Sequence record: ON528737
Length of the DNA stretch: 64,000 nucleotides
Source: Shigella phage ESh27
Reading direction: 5' to 3' (one strand)
Positions within the stretch are counted from its first letter, which is position 1; every line of letters starts with the position of its first letter. The notes below the pieces were generated by a model. The model ran no database searches and had not been told where the DNA came from. It worked only from the letters and a program-made list of their open reading frames with translations. The position numbers and the translations under genes are program-made. This document shows, piece after piece, positions 2,041 through 57,298 of the stretch.

Positions 2041-2700
2041 TTATTTAGCCCGCCCTAATATCCTTGCTGCTTGGTTGCATATTGCAGCCAAGCGTTCTTC
2101 ATTTAACACATCCGACCCCTTATACCAATACATAGAAACAGTTCCAGCATATATGTTATCCAAATTGAAGTAAGGACAACTATACATATATGCCAGTTCC
2201 GGAGTTTTTGATTTGGTAGGTAAGAAAGCAAAATCTGTTTTAGAAGTAAAGTGAAGTCCACTTAAATGGACCGAATACTCTGCTGTCGTTTTATCGACAG
2301 GAAATCCTCCCATAGATTTTTCAGTTACTGTGCTAGGTAACTTACCTTCATACGCAATAAGGTCGACGAAATAATTTAGATTTTTAGGTCTGAAAGAATA
2401 CACCGAACTAAAATCCGCCCTTGATGTGACGTGGACTATTTGTAGTTGTTCTAAAGCCGCAGATTCAAATCGTGTATTTCTTTCTTTTTGAATTACTTCT
2501 GTGTAAGTATCATATTTCGACCTCACGTAATAATCCATAAAAATATTCCCCTTGTACCATATTAGTGCCATTAGGAACAAAAGAACTACAACAGCAACTC
2601 TGGAAATAAGAATATTTCCAGAGGCGTTATCTTTGAAAATGCGGTCTAGCAACCCAAATAAAATATCACTAAGCGAAAATGATATTCTAGGTGCTGCCAT
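2041..2700 (-). CDS. t: holin T (lysis timing)
   Basis: 219 aa; MAAPRISFS..ILFG.LDR.FKDNA N-terminus, single TMD, C-terminal ..CNQAARILGRAK as in T4 holin (218 aa). Confidence 0.92.
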   Translation of the reverse strand: MAAPRISFSLSDILFGLLDRIFKDNASGNILISRVAVVVLLFLMALIWYKGNIFMDYYVRSKYDTYTEVIQKERNTRFESAALEQLQIVHVTSRADFSSVYSFRPKNLNYFVDLIAYEGKLPSTVTEKSMGGFPVDKTTAEYSVHLSGLHFTSKTDFAFLPTKSKTPELAYMYSCPYFNLDNIYAGTVSMYWYKGSDVLNEERLAAICNQAARILGRAK

Positions 2701-2718
2701 AGACCCTCCTTTTAAGGA

Positions 2719-2726
2719 TATTTATA
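2719..2726 (-). promoter_or_regulatory. late promoter TATAAATA (gene t)
   Basis: Reverse-strand TATAAATA followed by AAGGAGG SD and ATG at 2700. Confidence 0.6.
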
Positions 2727-2745
2727 TGCTGAGAGGTATTACCAT

Positions 2746-3525
2746 TTAAATCCAGGAACCATAGATCGTGCCTGTTGCACCCCATGACGGTGAACTTCCG
2801 AATACTGCTCTGCCAGGAGCACCGCCACCAGATCTAGATAAGTGATTACCCCATCCATCTCCGCCCCGACCTCCAGCATCGCCGCCATTGCCTCCGCCGA
2901 ATTGGGAAGTGTAACCGGCGCCGCCCGGGGCGTCATAACTAGCATTACCACCCGGCCAATTAACACCACCGCCACCGAGACCAAATGGTCTGCCACCGCC
3001 ACCACCAGCTGTAGCATTTGGCGCCCAGCTATTCTGTAATGACACTGCACCACCACCGCCACCGCCTGATGCAATAACGCCATAGTTCCAAATACGAAGT
3101 CTTCCGCCGATATCATTTTGGATTACATCGCCGCCATTTGTGCCTGGGTTTCCGTTTACAGTACCGTTACCACCTCGTCCCCACATATGAACACCGCCGT
3201 GAATATTCAAAGTGACATATTCGTTAGGAGTATCACCATACATGAAGAATAAAGGAACGTCTTTAGAATATGATACCAAATTTCCGGTGATATTAAACAC
3301 TATAGGCGCACTACCTGCCTCAAAACATCTATCTCGGAACCATTGACCATTGAAGTTATGGTCTGCTCCAAGTGTGTGAATAATTTCTCTTGAGCGACCT
3401 GCAAATTGACTCATCCAGCAAGGAACACCCAATCTTAATTGACCAGCTGCTTGACTCATCCAGCGCTGACCCGTTTCATTTACGGCTGAACTTCCAATCC
3501 AGCCAGGAACTCCAACTACTGCCAT
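2746..3525 (-). CDS. 38: gp38 receptor-recognising adhesin (T2-type, glycine-rich motifs)
   Basis: 259 aa; conserved N-terminus [36 protein letters not shown]-terminal poly-Gly motifs separated by variable segments; lies between 37 and t. Confidence 0.85.
2810..3180 (-). repeat. glycine-rich motif / hypervariable segment array in gp38 adhesin
   Basis: Runs of GGN codons (CC-rich on + strand, e.g. CCACCGCCACCGCC) encoding GGGGGG, GGGGG, GGGG, GGGNGG blocks separated by short variable segments. Confidence 0.8.
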
Positions 3526-3561
3526 AATTTATACTCCAAAGGGGGCATTTCCCCCTTGTTG

Positions 3562-6500
3562 TTAGAATTTAAAATATTTACTAATTTTGCGAGCAATTTT
3601 AGTAAAGAGAGGCGTTTTCAATTCTTTAATTTCTTCGCTCATTTCCTGAATGGCCTTAATTAAAAGCGCGTTCACTGCGGAGTTTGAAATTGTTAAAATT
3701 TCTTCTGGGTTATCCTGAGATCCGACACTAGAAGTGCTAACAGCTTCCGGTAATACTTCTTGCAAATCCTGTGCGATAATACCAATCTCATGGCCGATAA
3801 CTTCGCGGTCAGAAAGAGATTTAACTTTATCATAGGTTTTAACTTTGAGTTTATTTACCTTATCCACCGCATTCTCTTCGTAGTCTTCGACATTAATTTT
3901 CAGACGACGGTCAGAACGAATATAAACGTCGTTACAATATACAGCAGCACCAGCAGTAAAATCACCGTTAGATGCAAATGCATAATCACTCCCACCCACA
4001 TGCAATACAACATGAGGATTACCACCGCCAGCATGAACACCCATCGCCGCAAGGTGCTGTTCGCCCCAATGAGTAGCTTTCCAAATGTTATATGCTTGAT
4101 TTCGTGAGTCCTGACAGTCTACCAACAATCCAGCCGGACGGTCTCGCCAGTCTACCCATGCACCACCGGAAATATTACCACGGATAAGAGCGTATTCACT
4201 ATTATATGGAACACGCTCTCCCGCTAGAATCATTGCACCCTGGAAGTGATGACTAAATGAACCACCATGATTATTGTGAATATGTAAAATACCCTCATCT
4301 GTAGCCCAGATAACAGCCTTTTCTGCATCGCTATCATCTCTAAACCAGATATGTCGTGCACCAGTTGAGTTTTTGATGGTTATTCCGTTAGGTCCATGCA
4401 CGGTCAAAGCACCAGCAACATCAAACATCAAACTGTTATCTGTCCTGCGTTCAGCATAGAAGTGATAACCTTTTGAATCGCCGACTTCCAATACTGCCGC
4501 GCGACCAACTTCTGAATTTCCCCAATTGTTGATAGAGAATCGTTCAGAGCTATTATTCATCTGATTTAGGTATAATGTACCATCAGTGAATGTTTCGCCA
4601 AAGAAACGAGTTTTAATTGCACCTGTCGCTAAAGTACGTTCAGTGGAAAAATGAGCGCCTTGACTATCTTCTAACTGGATGATGTTATCACGACCATTAT
4701 TACTATCACCCCAATGGTTAAATTTAAAATAATCTCGTGATCCTAAACGTCCCGGGTCAAAAGTCATCACGCCTTTCATGTTAATATCACCGCTGACCAG
4801 AACGTTATCTGGGAAGTTAACAGTACCGTCTTGATTAAAACGAGACGCATGGCCTTGTGAACCATCTTCTTTCAGATGATGAATAACGAATGTACCTGAT
4901 TCAATTTCGGTACCTAAAGACCAAACGGATTTACCGTTTAAAAACTTCTGTTTAACAATAGGATAATATTTGCTTACAGCGTCATCATCGATTTCCTGGA
5001 AAATAGGAGCCGCTTGAACATATTGAATGTCATAACCGCCGGCACCCGCTCCATGACCAACAAATTTAATATAGCCATTCGCAGCAAACGTATTGTAACT
5101 TGATTGTAAATCTGGAATAGTAACTTTACCGGTATCTAAAGCCATACTAAACGGGCGAAGTGGACCGATATCACCATGTTTACCTTCACCATAAGCAGTT
5201 GGAATAATATGAAGACTGCCTTCTGAACGTCTAAAAATGGCTCCATAATCTGCGTTCCAAATACGAAGAGCATTCACTGCTCCAGATGAAATTTCACCTG
5301 TTGTGTGAACTCCTCTATCTCCAGCAGTAACACCAGATGATTCAAATGAACCATTAACGTTCATTTCTACTTCGCCAGTAGTAAGTCTTTGAATATAGCT
5401 CATCCAGCTAGTTGCATCAGAAATTTCCATAATGTTTTTACGGATACCTCCGCTTGGATCAACAAACGTATTACCCCAAACTTTAATATCCATATTATCA
5501 ACCGAGCTGTATCCTGTTGTGTTGCCTCTAAACATTAGTGTAGAAGAATTATTTCTACCATCTATATTAACAGAACCACCAATAACGTCAATATTACCAG
5601 GAGTAACTAACAAACCGCCATGAGTATTAATGTTTGTGGTACCCTTGCCGCGGAAATAATGATGATAGTTACCGCCTTGATAATATCCTAAAAGAGTTTG
5701 ACCATCGCCGTATGCGTTATTATCATGGTAAGTAACAACAGTGGCCAAAGCATAGTTTTCTGTCGGTGGCGTTGTCATAAGAAGCCCATCTGGAGAATAA
5801 CCCATAACCATTTTTCTAAGGCTTTGTGTTTCCGCAGGACCGTAAATGAAAGTTTTTGTTCCGTTGTTTACTGTATGGAAATATCCATCCTGATGCCACT
5901 TAAATCCGGTATCATTATCACCAAGAACAATTGAGGCCGTTCCTAATTCAGAATATCCTTTTGGACCACCTGGAAGACCTACAGCGATAGAATGACCGGC
6001 TTTCAATCCACCGGACCAGGTAAACGACCAAAGATAAGTGTCTAAGCCATCTCCGGAATACCAGGTTATTCCGTCATTAACATTAACTTCGTGGAAAATA
6101 CCTGCTCCTACAGCATTTCGCATAACACGGAGGTGGTTAATAGCCGTTTCGCTTTCTGCCAATGGAGTGTTATTTGATAATGAATAGATGTCATAATCGC
6201 CTGTCTTCTTCCCATTTGTAATAACTTTGTCGGTCAGAATTTGTGGAGACGAAATAGATTTCCATGCTGATACTTCAGGTGAAGTAAATAGTCCACTGCC
6301 CGAAAATGCATAGGTGCTTTCATCACCAGCGGCGTAGTCTTGAACCCTGATATTAAGTACTTGTGTAGTTAAACCATCATTAGCCGGGGCATAAATGATT
6401 CCACGTTCGCGACTATTGTTATCGAAAAAACGAACATGTGCTGTACCTGAACTTTTTGTAATAAGTTCACCGCCTTCAGTCATAATCTGCCCAGCGGCAA

Positions 6501-13532: not shown

Positions 13533-13802
13533 ATGGCTAAGAAAGAAGCAGTTGAATTTAATCAAGATGTGCATGGTGAAGAACTGGCTAAACTAGTCAA
13601 GGAAGCTTCCGATAACAAACTTAAAATTTCTGGTTATAATGAACTGATTAAAGACATTCGTACTCGTGCTAAAGAAGAGCTTGGCGTTGATGGAAAAATG
13701 TTTAATCGTTTGTTAGCTCTTTATCATAAAGATGCTCGTGACCAATTTGAAGCTGAAAACGAAGAGGTAGTCGAGCTTTATGACACAGTTTTCACTAAGT
13801 GA
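13533..13802 (+). CDS. dsbA: dsDNA-binding protein DsbA (late transcription enhancer)
   Basis: 89 aa, size and position between rnh and 33 as in T4. Confidence 0.8.
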   Translation: MAKKEAVEFNQDVHGEELAKLVKEASDNKLKISGYNELIKDIRTRAKEELGVDGKMFNRLLALYHKDARDQFEAENEEVVELYDTVFTK

Positions 13803-52518: not shown

Positions 52519-53802
52519 TTATTCATCTATAATAATTTTAGGCAATTTAACACCAAGTAAAACAGACAAGTCTGAACGTCCTGCCATTTTATCCATGTCC
52601 CCGCCATCAATTACTCTCGCTTCTTTTTCATCTTTTGCTACTGTGTAAGGATTTGCTGATAAAGCATATCTAACCAATAAACCTATAGATGGTTGTAAGC
52701 TTTCCGGATCAACTACAACTTTAAATGCACCGACATGTTCCGGGTCGTCTAAATCCATTCCTTCAGTGTATGGAGCATAAAAGATGGACCCTACAATTTC
52801 TTTTTCGCCGATATTTTCTACAACACCCACAATAACATAATCTAACGGACTGTTAGTATCGCAATAAAGCGGTAAACCATTAGCTAAGAACCCGTAAGCA
52901 TTTTGTGAAAGATACTTATCATCTTCTGGTTTATGTTTTAACCAACCGGAAGCAGCAAGAATAGCAGCTGCACGAGCTGAAGCTACACAAAACGTCGCAG
53001 TATAAGTTGACTCTTTTTGAATGTGGGATACCATTTCACACACCATTCGATATAACGAACGACCTGCTTCCGGAGCGGATGCATAGCTCAAGTCAATAAA
53101 TCCAGTGTCAGTAATTCCAGTAACTTTATAACGTTTCGATACAGTAATTAAAGACTGAAGAATATCTTTATTAATTTCATCAGCCATTTCAGTAGCAAGC
53201 AAATCTTCTAAGAAGTTAGGGGCATCAAATCCATTCGCTTCCAAATCTTGCGCTAATTCAACCGTGAGACCGGTTTTAAGTTTACGAGATTTGACTGAAG
53301 TTTGCCATTTATTAATCTGGAATCTTGCATCAGAAATTTCGCTACCAGAGCTTTCAAATTTGCTTGTCACCGCTGCATCTGAAAATAACCGTACCTTTAA
53401 ATGAACGACTGCAATCTGAAGAGCCAATTCTAGATCACTTTCTTGAATATCTGCAAATGGCGTATCTTCTAACACTTTATAGACGATATTATTATATTTG
53501 AAAAAATCGCCTTTATTTAGTGTGACTTTTGATTCTTCTGTGAGCTCGGTAATTTTTTCTCGGTCTACATATCCAGCTTCACCTGCATAAGTAGCACCAG
53601 TTTTAAACGTTAATTCGTTGTCTGGGTTAAGATATTTGATACCATAAAAAGCAGCAACAGGTTGATTAGTTCTTTGTGTTGCTACAATGTCAGAATATAT
53701 TAATTTAGTCGTAGCGCGAGTCAAAGCAACGAGATTTGGGCGACCAATTGAGTTGCTAGTAGACGTTGTAGATTCACGCAATAATTTTTGGATTTTACTC
53801 AT
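52519..53802 (-). CDS. 24: gp24 head vertex protein
   Basis: 427 aa (T4 gp24 427 aa); gp23-like fold region; synteny; late promoter upstream. Confidence 0.9.
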   Translation of the reverse strand: MSKIQKLLRESTTSTSNSIGRPNLVALTRATTKLIYSDIVATQRTNQPVAAFYGIKYLNPDNELTFKTGATYAGEAGYVDREKITELTEESKVTLNKGDFFKYNNIVYKVLEDTPFADIQESDLELALQIAVVHLKVRLFSDAAVTSKFESSGSEISDARFQINKWQTSVKSRKLKTGLTVELAQDLEANGFDAPNFLEDLLATEMADEINKDILQSLITVSKRYKVTGITDTGFIDLSYASAPEAGRSLYRMVCEMVSHIQKESTYTATFCVASARAAAILAASGWLKHKPEDDKYLSQNAYGFLANGLPLYCDTNSPLDYVIVGVVENIGEKEIVGSIFYAPYTEGMDLDDPEHVGAFKVVVDPESLQPSIGLLVRYALSANPYTVAKDEKEARVIDGGDMDKMAGRSDLSVLLGVKLPKIIIDE

Positions 53803-53828
53803 TGCATTTTTCCTTATGTGATATAGAT

Positions 53829-53836
53829 TATTTATA
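53829..53836 (-). promoter_or_regulatory. late promoter TATAAATA (gene 24)
   Basis: Reverse-strand TATAAATA ~27 nt upstream of gene 24 ATG. Confidence 0.55.
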
Positions 53837-53842
53837 AAGATT

Positions 53843-53872
53843 GTTTACAACGTATTTGGTATGTGATACTAT
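53843..53872 (+). promoter_or_regulatory. early sigma70-type promoter (89-aa ORF between 24 and 23)
   Basis: -35 GTTTAC, 18-nt spacer, -10 TACTAT in TGTGATACTATAGAC block. Confidence 0.5.
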
Positions 53873-53902
53873 AGACTTATTAACTACAGAGGAGTAAACA
53901 AA

Positions 53903-54172
53903 ATGACTAAAGCACGTTTCTTACGAGATACTTTAAAAGTTCTGGAAGCTGAAGCGGTTAAGTTAGTAGAAAAATATGGTGCAAAAGTTAATGGTAATGC
54001 CTTCAACAAAGTATGGATGAAAGTTGATTCTGAAGCTCGAGCTAAAGGCTATTGGGCCACCGATAAACTTGCATCATTCAAAAACAAAGACGGTTCTCCA
54101 GCATATGTCCAAGAAGGTATGCCTAATTGGCAAAATATTTTGAAAACTTACATCGAAATTGCACAGAAATAA
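53903..54172 (+). CDS. hypothetical protein (89 aa) in the 23/24 intergenic accessory slot
   Basis: Own early promoter 53843-53872 and AGAGGAG SD; opposite strand to flanking late genes; T4 carries segD at this position. Confidence 0.5.
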   Translation: MTKARFLRDTLKVLEAEAVKLVEKYGAKVNGNAFNKVWMKVDSEARAKGYWATDKLASFKNKDGSPAYVQEGMPNWQNILKTYIEIAQK

Positions 54173-54200
54173 AACCAAAAATGGGAGACCGAAGTCTCCC
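54171..54200 (-). terminator. rho-independent terminator after gene 23
   Basis: Minus-strand GGGAGAC-UUCG-GUCUCCC then AUUUUUGGUUUU. Confidence 0.7.
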
Positions 54201-54224
54201 AAAATAAGATTTAATCAATTAAGA

Positions 54225-55793
54225 TTAGATGCCTTTTACATATACACGGCGGAAGTAAGCGTTCTTACCAAGGCTGTTCAGGATAGACGGCATACCGGAC
54301 TGGATGCGAGCACCTGGAGCCTGCAGGGAACTTTCAGCAAACGGGTTAACACCGATACCGTAACGAGTTTTAAAGCCCATTACCGGCTGGAAGTTCTTAG
54401 GATCGGAACCACGCAGTGGGGTAAGTGCAACGTAAGGAGCATAGTAAATACCTGCATCCATTTCGTTAGCGCCTTTGTAACCAACGGTGAAGTAATCCTG
54501 TTTAGCATATTGGTCGATGTATACGCGGTATTTACCACCAAGTACACCGGCAAATACGGACTTAGTAGTGTCGGTATTAAAACCAGAAGCCAGACCCTGT
54601 GCAGCATAAGAAATGCCAGTATCAACTGAAGCCAGTACGTTAACTACGTTACGGGAAGCGATAATGAAGTTACCTTCACCACGACCGGTTTGACGAGCAA
54701 TTTCAACTGCTTCTTTATCAATCTGGAACAACAGAGATTTAAAGCTTTCACCAGCCCAACGAGCACCACGGATATCAATCGGGTCCTGGAAGTCAAATAC
54801 ACCAGCTTTAGAACCCGGAGTCAGGGTCATACCAGATTTACCAACCTGAGCGGAGTAGTTAATCCAGTCAACAACTTCACGGTTGATTTCTAGCATAATT
54901 TCTGTAGCCAGGATACCGCTCAGTTCAGCATCAGCATCCATACCGTGTACTGCACGGAGGTCTTGTGCCAATTCGATGGAGTAAGCTGCTTTCAGCTGAC
55001 GAGATTTAGCTTCAATAACTTGTTTGTCGATACGGAAGCCCATTTCGTTCCATGGGTTATCAGTAGAACCGTTGAAACCTTCCTGGAGTTCAGCGATAGA
55101 AGTAGCCATACCTTCAGCGATTTCTACCAGTGCACCAGCTTCCATTTGTTTCTTAATTTCAGCATCTAATTTAGTTGCATCGTTAGCACTAGCATCGATT
55201 GTTACTACAGCGGAAGCTTGCAGATATACAGTACCAGTTTCCTGGAAGAAGTGAGTATAGATATCACCTACAACGGTTTGTGTGCTAGCAGCCAACGCCG
55301 GGAATTTCTTAGCAGCGCCCTGACCAGAGAACATTGCATCCGGAGCATACATCGGATGGAAAGCTTCTTTAGCGCCAGCAGCGATAGGGTCTTTACCATA
55401 TACTGCACGGAGAGCAAATACCTGACCGGTAGGGCTGTTCATAGGCTGAACACCACAAATATCAAAAGCGATCAGATTAGGAATAGCACGACGAACCATA
55501 CCCATAACTGCTGGCCCAATCTGGGTTACTGCACCAGAGGTTTGACCTGCTGCGATGTTCTGAGCATTATAACCGTGGTCACCACCAATTTCAGCTTCGG
55601 TCAAGAAAGAACCAAATGCCTGAGCGATTTTCTCGTCTTTATATTCAGGGGATACTTCGAAATCTTTTTCCTGGTTTTCGAAGATTTTAGCGATAATAGC
55701 CTGCTTGCTATTAGCGATTTCCGGCAGGCCTTCACCTTCCAGCAGTTCTTTCCATTTGTCTACGAGCTGAGCTTTAGTTTTGATAGTAGTCAT
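54225..55793 (-). CDS. 23: gp23 major capsid protein
   Basis: 522 aa; N-terminal propeptide ..FLTEAEIGGDHGYNA.. cleavage region and overall sequence match T4 gp23 (521 aa). Confidence 0.97.
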   Translation of the reverse strand: MTTIKTKAQLVDKWKELLEGEGLPEIANSKQAIIAKIFENQEKDFEVSPEYKDEKIAQAFGSFLTEAEIGGDHGYNAQNIAAGQTSGAVTQIGPAVMGMVRRAIPNLIAFDICGVQPMNSPTGQVFALRAVYGKDPIAAGAKEAFHPMYAPDAMFSGQGAAKKFPALAASTQTVVGDIYTHFFQETGTVYLQASAVVTIDASANDATKLDAEIKKQMEAGALVEIAEGMATSIAELQEGFNGSTDNPWNEMGFRIDKQVIEAKSRQLKAAYSIELAQDLRAVHGMDADAELSGILATEIMLEINREVVDWINYSAQVGKSGMTLTPGSKAGVFDFQDPIDIRGARWAGESFKSLLFQIDKEAVEIARQTGRGEGNFIIASRNVVNVLASVDTGISYAAQGLASGFNTDTTKSVFAGVLGGKYRVYIDQYAKQDYFTVGYKGANEMDAGIYYAPYVALTPLRGSDPKNFQPVMGFKTRYGIGVNPFAESSLQAPGARIQSGMPSILNSLGKNAYFRRVYVKGI

Positions 55794-56661: not shown

Positions 56662-57298
56662 ATGCTTTTAAACTCTCTGCGAGAGCTTTAAATGCTTCAT
56701 CAGCACTGTTTTTGGTGATTTCCACCGAATTTTCTGATTCTGATATTTGTTTAGGAGTAACCCAAGCATCTGGAGCAGAAGGTCCCCATACGGCATCTAC
56801 GCCGACGGTTAATTTAAATCCTTCGTTCACGATACGGTACCCTTTATTGGTGTCGGTTAAAGAACCAAGACCACGAGAGGAAACACCTGGAATCCAACCA
56901 GCTCGTATATTAGCAGCTAATTTATCGCCGGGACCATGGTCGCCTTCAATAATTCTAGCGCGTCCATATACATCGTTTCCTTTCCACCACATATCTTCAA
57001 TAATGATAGCGGCTTGCATAGGGTCAACATTTGCGCGAGGTGGATGGTTTAATTCTCCAAGGGCTTGTTTAGTTGCGACTTGTTCTTTAATATAGTCACT
57101 TACTGCTTTTTCCAAAACGCGTTTAGGATATAAACGTTTATTTCGGTTAACAACCTCTGCCTGAAGAAAAATACCTTCTATATAAAGCCCTGGTTTTAAG
57201 CCAGAATCTTTTCCATCATGAGATTCCAACATTGGAACGCCATCAATAATCTCACCGGGTTGACCCCAAGTTTCAATAAGTAACTCGGGTTTATTCAT
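56657..57298 (-). CDS. 21: gp21 prohead protease
   Basis: 213 aa (T4 gp21 212 aa); synteny. Confidence 0.88.
   Translation of the reverse strand: MNKPELLIETWGQPGEIIDGVPMLESHDGKDSGLKPGLYIEGIFLQAEVVNRNKRLYPKRVLEKAVSDYIKEQVATKQALGELNHPPRANVDPMQAAIIIEDMWWKGNDVYGRARIIEGDHGPGDKLAANIRAGWIPGVSSRGLGSLTDTNKGYRIVNEGFKLTVGVDAVWGPSAPDAWVTPKQISESENSVEITKNSADEAFKALAESLKAL

Follow-up and report, generated by a model that had tools for sequence, protein, structure and literature searches.

An accessory gene with an early-type promoter in the variable interval between capsid genes 24 and 23 of T-even phages

In phage T4 the interval between the capsid genes 24 and 23 carries segD, a free-standing gene for a GIY-YIG homing endonuclease. 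In Shigella phage ESh27 (sequence record ON528737), a Mosigvirus and thus an RB69-like T-even phage, the same interval holds an 89-aa open reading frame (ORF), which raises the question of what this ORF is and what it is doing between two late genes. The DNA analysed, hereafter the window, is a single stretch of 64,000 nucleotides. A preliminary description of it had reported a plus-strand 89-aa ORF between the minus-strand genes 24 and 23, with its own GTTTAC early promoter and Shine-Dalgarno sequence, and all of these elements were found within 1–2 nt of where they had been placed:

52519–53802, minus strand: gene 24, capsid vertex protein, 427 aa (ORF list; gp24 in the 99% identical PhAPEC2 record); left boundary of the slot
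53829–53836, minus strand: gene 24 late promoter, TATAAATA on the minus strand, which reads TATTTATA on the plus strand
53843–53872, plus strand: early-type sigma-70 promoter (scan), with the -35 element GTTTAC(A) at 53843–53849, a 17-nt spacer and the -10 element TACTAT at 53867–53872
53889–53894, plus strand: Shine-Dalgarno sequence GAGGAG (read from the sequence), 8 nt upstream of the ORF ATG
53903–54172, plus strand: 89-aa ORF with an ATG start (ORF list), the intact form of RB69ORF189c/188c, PHROG 6003
54182–54201, minus strand: intrinsic terminator of gene 23, an 8-bp stem with a UUCG loop, then a T run on the minus strand
54225–55793, minus strand: gene 23, major capsid protein, 522 aa (ORF list and PhAPEC2 record); right boundary of the slot

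Genes 23 and 24 are so named because annotated genomes 99% identical to the window carry these names. The ORF unit is oriented against both late capsid genes, the ORF being antisense to 23 and 24.

The ORF is a genuine gene, and purifying selection acts on the protein it encodes. The dN/dS ratio is 0.07–0.18 (eight informative pairs), and the three differences between the window and PhAPEC2 ORFs are all synonymous. Length and motifs are conserved among 30 homologues reaching down to ~30% identity, and K3, F6, G31, N32, N35 and Q70 are invariant in 25 homologues of 83–93 aa. The gene was already known: it is annotated in more than 100 genomes, its product is 100% identical to a Mosigvirus "hypothetical protein" deposited on 262 contigs, residues 1–89 match positions 1–90 of the 90-position PHROG 6003 profile (E = 2.1e-45), and a promoter was predicted for it in RB69 in 2006. 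In the PhAPEC2 record it is annotated by its similarity to RB69ORF188c. Two indels, +1 and -1, split the frame of the RB69 reference into fragments of 29 aa and 41 aa (RB69ORF189c/188c). Literature searches found no papers on RB69ORF188c or phrog_6003.

The encoded protein is basic (pI 9.6, net charge +5 to +6) and soluble, and no membrane segment is evident from its sequence. Its charge is also compatible with nucleic-acid binding. AlphaFold2, given the family alignment, returned a model with a pLDDT of 94.8 (at least 93 in all five models) in which helices 3–25 and 31–48 are followed by a beta-hairpin (52–60/66–70) and a last helix (76–88). The ORF is thus predicted to encode a compact three-helix plus beta-hairpin protein without known relatives: searches of Pfam, NCBIfam, PDB sequence profiles and folds found none, in agreement with the earlier remark that the protein contains no recognisable motif. 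A GIY-YIG domain is absent according to Pfam and NCBIfam, and the sequence is unrelated to SegD of T4 or LF82-16. Family and structure searches detected no sequence or fold homology to a characterised anti-defence or host-takeover protein, and a scan of species-representative bacterial genomes with the alignment of the 83-aa subfamily found no homologue. Pfam DUF4859 was discarded as noise (E = 0.003, below the curated cutoff, in 3 of 25 members). We also rejected the 655-aa protein P0013, whose 30-residue match involved the Mosigvirus subtype only, was absent from the other subtypes and was inflated by five repeats, which we take to resemble cytochrome-b5-type domains.

What might such a protein do? 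It may bind an enterobacterial host macromolecule, in host takeover or counter-defence, and binding of this kind would make the gene useful on some hosts only. That its mode of action is to bind or inhibit a host protein we rate a little short of an even chance; the idea is drawn solely from analogy to phage genes that are likewise small, mobile and early. A small, basic factor that binds nucleic acid, for example an early/late transcription regulator or an RNA-binding protein, in place of a host-protein inhibitor, is unlikely. Such a factor would agree with the pI of 9.3–9.8 and net charge of +3 to +9 of 12 of the 13 homologues examined, and with weak, non-significant Foldseek matches to winged-helix-like structures including ORC2, DnaD-N and Cdt1. 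However, K3 is the sole invariant basic residue, the other invariants being F, G, N, N and Q; the DNA-binding folds were matched at TM 0.2–0.3 with E > 0.3, and the structure search with a better model returned generic helical bundles only. A weak profile match to the DsbA-like ORF of the window (13533–13802) was rejected as well, at an hhalign probability of 1.8%.

The reading of the ORF as an accessory gene draws on the distribution of the slot contents. A comparison of the 23–24 region across T-even phages, which the preliminary description had proposed, shows the slot to be polymorphic, with four states: empty, ORF alone, ORF with segD, and segD alone. The empty slot (~83 bp; 83 bp in G29 and inferred from match spans for many others) is found in most Tequatrovirus, in several other genera and in KPV15, Merlin and PEi26. 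The ORF alone occupies the slot in Mosigvirus (the window and ~120 records), Gaprivervirus, WG01 and Dhakavirus, whereas the ORF and segD stand in tandem in the Dhakavirus phages 04086 and IME08 and in the Mosigvirus phages LF82-x, ATK48, JQD51 and BEU50. In these tandem slots, segD starts 4 nt downstream of the ORF stop (04086 and LF82-16) or adjoins the ORF (ATK48, JQD51 and BEU50), and would belong to the same transcription unit. Finally, segD without the ORF is present in T4, T6, MHG19, NM4.3 and others; in T4 it lies, as had been proposed, at this very position, on the same strand as the ORF. The ORF does not correspond to a named T4 gene at this place, no homologue of the 89-aa protein having been found in T4. 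Upstream of T4 segD, the search for an ORF remnant yielded only a short CGGAGT/AAAATG resemblance to 04086, which is too short for us to claim a deletion in T4.

Three genera (239 phage records) carry the ORF at this syntenic position; it lies between genes 23 and 24, on the strand opposite to theirs, in PhAPEC2, VR20, WG01, 04086, KIT06, LF82-16, RB69 and two metagenomic T4-like contigs. It is dispensable: many relatives have an empty slot, the RB69 reference carries a frameshifted ORF, and in mogra and 310Ecol104PP the ORF is truncated. The earlier view that the slot holds this ORF instead of an endonuclease is right for the window, where the ORF stands alone, but the ORF is no one-off cargo, being maintained in three genera under purifying selection. 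Similarly, the proposed hotspot with exchanged cargo is borne out in that the slot is variable and its alleles have been swapped between genera, but not in that one gene replaces the other, since the ORF and segD co-occur in tandem.

Two phages point to such swaps. The flanks of LF82-16 are 87–100% identical to the window (mostly >94%); its ORF region is 47–65% identical to the window and up to 97–99% identical to Dhakavirus 04086, and the Shine-Dalgarno sequence marks the junction. In KIT06, T4-type flanks enclose an ORF 93–96% identical to that of WG01, a cassette acquired without segD. By these comparisons, cassette alleles have moved horizontally across genus boundaries. Homologues are also present outside the T4-like phages, in arrays of small same-strand ORFs on contigs related to ~145-kb myoviruses (ABPH49, Kashira), and on contigs related to ~48-kb Klebsiella phages. 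Read by eye, the flanks of three of these four distant homologues contain promoter- or hairpin-like elements (P0024 and P0009 are preceded by promoter-like hexamers; P0024, P0009 and P0026 are followed by hairpins), and neither element was found by eye around P0025. A PHROG scan of the neighbours at one non-T4 locus returned families of unknown function and an endonuclease only.

The proximity of segD suggests that the ORF could be functionally part of the SegD mobile element, whether as a co-mobile partner, as a regulator of SegD, or as a landing site or hitch-hiker spread by co-conversion. The tandem spacing in five phages fits this proposal, as do the joint entry of the Dhaka-type ORF and segD into a Mosigvirus backbone and the promoter common to the slot states. 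We nevertheless regard it as quite improbable: most carriers hold the ORF without segD, KIT06 gained the cassette on its own, T4, MHG19 and NM4.3 hold segD without the ORF, and no GIY-YIG gene is adjacent to the four homologues from other phage types (five loci checked).

The promoter scan matched TTTACA-17-TACTAT at 53844–53872, with an extended -10 TG at 53864–53865; the full GTTTAC hexamer lies at 53843–53848, and transcription is expected to start near 53879–53880. Upstream of the ORF, and codirectional with it, there is thus a -35 element GTTTAC with a -10 element resembling TATAAT, as in T4-type early genes, the promoter consensus of which has been described (PMC1524935). Within 800 bp of this AT-rich region, two promoter-like matches were found where 2.2 are expected, and a single match is therefore at chance level; support for the promoter comes from comparison across 19 slots of diverged phages. 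Among these, the hexamers are 88% identical pairwise versus 43% for the spacers, although the spacer length is 17 nt in 19/19, and the early promoter is separated from the late promoter of gene 24 by 7 nt in 17 slots and by 6–7 nt in 18. GGAG or GAGGAG is kept across all homologous T4-like slots. The promoter first proposed for the window alone is backed by a geometry kept in 19 slots. In RB69, the early promoter Pe:109605 and the late promoter Pl:109573 were predicted at the homologous sites in 2006 (PMC1524935 and its supplement).

The promoter geometry is common to all filled slot states; empty T4-like slots have no such early promoter. Its T4 counterpart, TTTACA-17-TATTAT with TG, sits ahead of segD, and the same promoter position would, judging from its placement, drive segD in other phages, either alone or downstream of the ORF. 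T4 segD has been classed as "early RNA, middle protein", and mass spectrometry has picked up SegD peptides (PMC9697503 supplements). In a 2010 review, segD is without an identifiable promoter; the conserved promoter provides a sequence-based explanation for its early transcription in T4.

On the left, the late promoter box of gene 24, 26 nt upstream of the gene 24 ATG, is separated from the divergent GTTTAC by 6 nt in the window and is kept in every compared slot, the empty one included. On the right, every compared slot, empty ones too, ends with the same or an equivalent hairpin. This hairpin had been described as a shared terminator. It does lie just downstream of the ORF and is stable when folded on the plus strand (-13.5 kcal/mol, z = -5.2), but it has the form of a canonical intrinsic terminator on the minus strand only, where the UUCG loop is followed by TTTTTGGTTT and it ends gene 23. 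On the ORF side it is followed by AAAATAAGATTT, without a U tract, and forms a stable hairpin at the 3' end of the ORF message. With the nearest further terminator-like site of the plus strand ~2.5 kb away, the cassette is not fully insulated.

Anti-late RNA exists in T4, as known from older literature. One may thus imagine that the transcript itself is the product, reaching antisense into gene 23 or occluding the gene 24 late promoter and so silencing the capsid genes early, the ORF being incidental. The spacing of 6–7 nt between the late TATAAATA box and the early -35 hexamer, seen in 18 of 19 slots, and the lack of a good plus-strand terminator for ~2.5 kb would suit this mechanism. It is nonetheless highly improbable, as the protein is under strong purifying selection and has a confident predicted fold, conservation at the protein level extends to homologues in unrelated genomic settings, and in most T4-like phages the slot is empty and lacks a promoter of this kind. 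That the frame of the ORF is open only by chance, in a spacer rich in A and T, as a promoter match at chance level and the two fragments annotated in the RB69 reference might suggest, is refuted by the dN/dS values, the 30 homologues of conserved length and motifs, the PHROG 6003 match (E = 2e-45) and the pLDDT of 94.8.

The best reading is a self-contained early unit, comprising promoter, ribosome-binding site and 89-codon gene, set between the late promoter of gene 24 and the terminator of gene 23. From its sequence and from the example of T4 segD, this unit would be transcribed by the host RNA polymerase in the first minutes of infection, and an expressed early accessory gene cassette is very probable. 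Taken as a whole, a dispensable, mobile, early-expressed accessory gene that would act on a host factor is the probable answer, the last step being the most conjectural. We propose only tentatively that the protein, of a new fold, inhibits a host factor or defence system early in infection, and that it is encoded by an autonomous promoter-gene cassette that moves between unrelated enterobacterial phage lineages and serves as a docking site for SegD, T4 being the ORF-less state of the same unit with its segD driven by the early promoter of the cassette. The gene itself is an ordinary accessory gene already in databases, and the comparative picture is modestly useful: the two main capsid genes of T-even phages are separated by a slot with four states, and the exchange of cassettes between genera is documented. 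As a small, strongly conserved family (~30 members) without a fold relative found, which hops between unrelated virulent phages, it is a reasonable candidate for host-takeover or counter-defence screens.

Small T-even early proteins of host takeover or counter-defence include Alc, AsiA, Arn, Dmd and MotB. The 89-aa protein is like them in size, early sigma-70 promoter, dispensability and patchy distribution among relatives, but unlike them in sequence and fold, as far as family and structure searches detect. The locus also recalls the morons of lambdoid phages, a concept discussed for T4-like phages (PMC1524935): one accessory ORF with its own promoter lies between genes that are adjacent in relatives (83-bp slot), and homologues in unrelated phages have promoter- or hairpin-like flanks. 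In contrast to morons, the promoter belongs to the early type of T4, the hairpin has the form of a true terminator on the opposite strand only, and the phage is virulent, hence without prophage expression. RB69ORF189c/188c is the same gene at the same position, its frame split in RB69 and intact in the window. Finally, the T4 segD locus shares the slot, the strand, the position and geometry of the promoter, and the closing terminator hairpin; it differs in its product, the window protein being 89 aa long without GIY-YIG domain or SegD similarity, and in some phages both genes stand in tandem.

The slot between gene 24 (capsid vertex protein) and gene 23 (major capsid protein) had been described as a hotspot with exchanged cargo, in which an 89-aa early-promoter ORF replaces the T4 occupant segD, a GIY-YIG homing endonuclease gene. 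The region was read directly and its ORFs were listed; the ORF, promoter, Shine-Dalgarno sequence and hairpin were all found in place.

Features of the 23-24 slot in the window
52519-53802, minus strand: gene 24 (ORF list)
53836-53829, minus strand: gene 24 late promoter box, TATAAATA
53843-53848, plus strand: GTTTAC, upstream of the 89-aa ORF
53867-53872: TACTAT, after a 17-nt spacer with TG at its end, upstream of the ORF
53889-53894: GAGGAG, 8 nt before the ATG of the ORF
53903-54172, plus strand: 89-codon ORF with an ATG start, between genes 24 and 23
54201-54182, minus strand: terminator-like site, the only one from the consensus scan
54225-55793, minus strand: gene 23 (ORF list)

GTTTAC is the T4 early -35 element (Nolan et al. 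2006, PMC1524935), and the consensus scan gave the promoter as TTTACA-17-TACTAT with a TG-extended -10. As only 6 nt separate the late box from GTTTAC (window 53829-53849), the gene 24 late and ORF early promoters lie back to back. The hairpin at 54182-54201, annotated as a terminator in the PhAPEC2 record, had been regarded as a shared terminator. It folds stably on either strand; however, a T run follows it on the minus strand only, so it is the terminator of gene 23 and, on the ORF strand, merely a 3' stem-loop. No terminator-like site was found on the ORF strand between 54202 and 56710 (∼2.5 kb), the next lying near 56711, so early transcription may continue in antisense through the end of the ORF towards gene 23 and into it.

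The 89-aa ORF is a real gene. A tblastn search returned 239 phage records, about 120 at ≥90% identity and 119 at 30–38%. An exhaustive profile search among 1.84 billion proteins found only 7 representatives at 50% clustering, and a profile search of 90% clusters gave 30 proteins of 51–160 aa. M1, K3, F6, G31, N32, N35 and Q70 are invariant in all 25 members aligned over their full length (83–93 aa). Nei-Gojobori dN/dS was 0.07–0.18 (eight informative pairs), and the three differences between the window and PhAPEC2 ORFs are all synonymous. Existing annotations already include it, as a hypothetical gene with no assigned function: PhAPEC2 labels it a hypothetical protein similar to RB69ORF188c, the exact protein occurs on 262 contigs in public collections, every time as "hypothetical protein", and all of it aligns with PHROG 6003, a family of unknown function (E = 2e-45). 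Its promoter had likewise been predicted, as RB69 early promoter Pe:109605 (109555-109605, minus strand) falls within the slot, as does late promoter Pl:109573 (Nolan et al. 2006, PMC1524935). With a 631-bp megablast query for the slot, 120 phage records matched at ≥80% coverage, with identity up to 99.5%; among the matches listed, the best were RB69-like phages (Mosigvirus). The RB69 reference itself (NC_004928) has two separately annotated pieces in the slot, ORF189c (29 aa) and ORF188c (41 aa). This split results from one +1 and one -1 indel, about 150 nt apart in the alignment with the window and PhAPEC2 (broken ORF at 3792-4032 of the RB69 locus, homologous to window 53903-54172), which point to a genuine pseudogene or else to an error in the old sequencing. 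Phages mogra and 310Ecol104PP also have truncated forms.

Comparison of the 23-24 region across T-even genomes revealed a variable slot. A 1631-bp query spanning the ends of both flanking genes gave match spans of about 1631 bp in Mosigvirus, about 2020 bp in T4 and T6, and about 1292 bp in most Tequatrovirus, in which the slot is therefore about 83 bp, as it is in Klebsiella phage KPV15, Citrobacter phage Merlin and Edwardsiella phage PEi26. Four states were defined from fetched examples and slot sequences.

States of the 23-24 slot
A, empty, terminator directly after the late promoter: G29
B, early promoter and ORF: window, PhAPEC2, VR20, WG01, KIT06
C, early promoter, ORF and segD: 04086, LF82-16
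D, early promoter and segD: T4, Yersinia phage MHG19, Citrobacter phage NM4.3

Adjacent coordinates indicate state C for ATK48, JQD51 and BEU50 as well. The ORF is the commoner occupant, with roughly 239 records against about 100 carrying a full-length SegD homologue. In 19 filled slots, the -35 is TTTACA (TGTACA once), the spacer exactly 17 nt and the -10 TAYWAT or CATAAT; in 17 of them TTTACA and the late box are 7 nt apart, a spacing shared by the window. Pairwise identity is 88% over the hexamers but 43% over the spacers. Two tandem gp24 paralogues adjoin the slot in VR20 (Gaprivervirus), WG01 (Dhakavirus) and two metagenomic T4-like contigs (L016, L018), and a single gp24 is present in the window, T4 and 04086. 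Shigella phage JK36 (locus coordinates 2227-4640) has two overlapping CDS annotated for gene 23, both labelled 'major capsid protein', and its region exceeds that of the window by about 850 bp; a partial duplication or an artefact of assembly might explain this.

Windowed identities over the alignment of gene 24, slot and gene 23 identified two clear mosaics.

Chimeric slots (coordinates of each locus)
LF82-16, 2104-3190: Mosigvirus backbone with Dhakavirus-type ORF and segD
KIT06, 2104-2521: Tequatrovirus backbone with Dhakavirus-type ORF cassette

Both capsid genes of LF82-16 are 87–100% identical to the window (mostly above 94%), whereas identity in its ORF region is 47–65% with the window and reaches 97–99% with Dhakavirus 04086, the switch point lying right at the Shine-Dalgarno sequence. 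The KIT06 capsid genes are 92–100% identical to T4 and mostly 95–98% to G29; its ORF is 93–96% identical to that of Dhakavirus WG01. These mosaics make the hotspot idea right in substance, although the ORF and segD do not rule each other out; the interpretation offered in the preliminary description is partly supported.

Distant homologues outside T4-like phages came from metagenomic contigs (L010, L013, L014) and from loci L011/L012; searches of isolate phages other than T4-like ones, and of species-representative bacterial genomes with 83-aa subfamily patterns, found none. Homologues P0009, P0025 and P0026 sit within long same-strand arrays of tiny ORFs on 35–141-kb metagenomic contigs, one such locus resembling Acinetobacter phage ABPH49 and Serratia phage Kashira; P0024 is preceded by a primase-like gene, on a contig similar to Klebsiella phages of roughly 48 kb. 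The array loci adjoin Phage_g100, T7 gp0.6-like and DUF7222 genes; at other loci, a primase gene precedes the family member, with NinX and Ead/Ea22-like genes nearby. Judged by eye from printed flanks, three of the four homologues have promoter- or hairpin-like flanks: P0024 (upstream, a terminator-like hairpin, TTGACG-17-TATACT and a Shine-Dalgarno sequence; a hairpin downstream), P0009 (promoter-like hexamers, hairpin downstream) and P0026 (a hairpin on each side). P0025 shows no clear promoter.

The preliminary description recognised no motif in the protein, and this was upheld: Pfam returned just DUF4859, below threshold, and there was no match in NCBIfam, in a PDB sequence profile search or, at E≤0.001, with Foldseek against PDB. 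The sole BFVD return was a member of the ORF's own family, and a repeat-protein and a DsbA-like match were examined and rejected. Resemblance to known families or folds was thus uninformative. By inspection, the sequence has no hydrophobic membrane segment. AlphaFold2 gave one good model of five from a six-sequence alignment, and pLDDT 93–95 in all five from 25 sequences; the predicted fold comprises helices 3–25 and 31–48, a beta-hairpin (52–60 and 66–70) and helix 76–88.

The protein is conserved, under selection and, by prediction, compactly folded, and its transcription unit is mobile and dispensable, with a conserved sigma-70 early-type promoter. The ORF would be transcribed by host RNA polymerase immediately after infection, and its product would act on a host macromolecule in a way useful only conditionally, which would explain the patchy distribution, the natural knock-outs and the horizontal spread. 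That the target is a host protein is our tentative preference, held at slightly below even confidence. With a pI of 9.6 and a net charge of +6, the protein is basic; binding to nucleic acid is an unlikely alternative reading. In state C (04086, LF82-16), segD starts 4 nt past the ORF stop; a SegD-linked role is more doubtful still, and a role at the RNA level is very improbable. Modest specialist interest attaches to the comparative results: the four-state slot, inter-genus cassette exchange and a candidate segD promoter in T4.

In T4, a segD-specific promoter was reported as not identifiable and very low transcript levels were expected (review by Edgell et al. 2010, PMC2988022). The T4 slot (NC_000866) carries, directly upstream of segD and on its strand, TTTACA-17-TATTAT with TG (10 of 12 matches; 4282-4254, minus strand of the fetched locus), at a position homologous to the early promoter of the window. 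From its sequence, this site is a candidate segD promoter. In Wolfram-Schauerte et al. 2022 (PMC9697503), segD is classed as an early RNA and middle protein, and SegD peptides are recorded; the early RNA class lends indirect experimental support to early firing of the promoter type found in the window.
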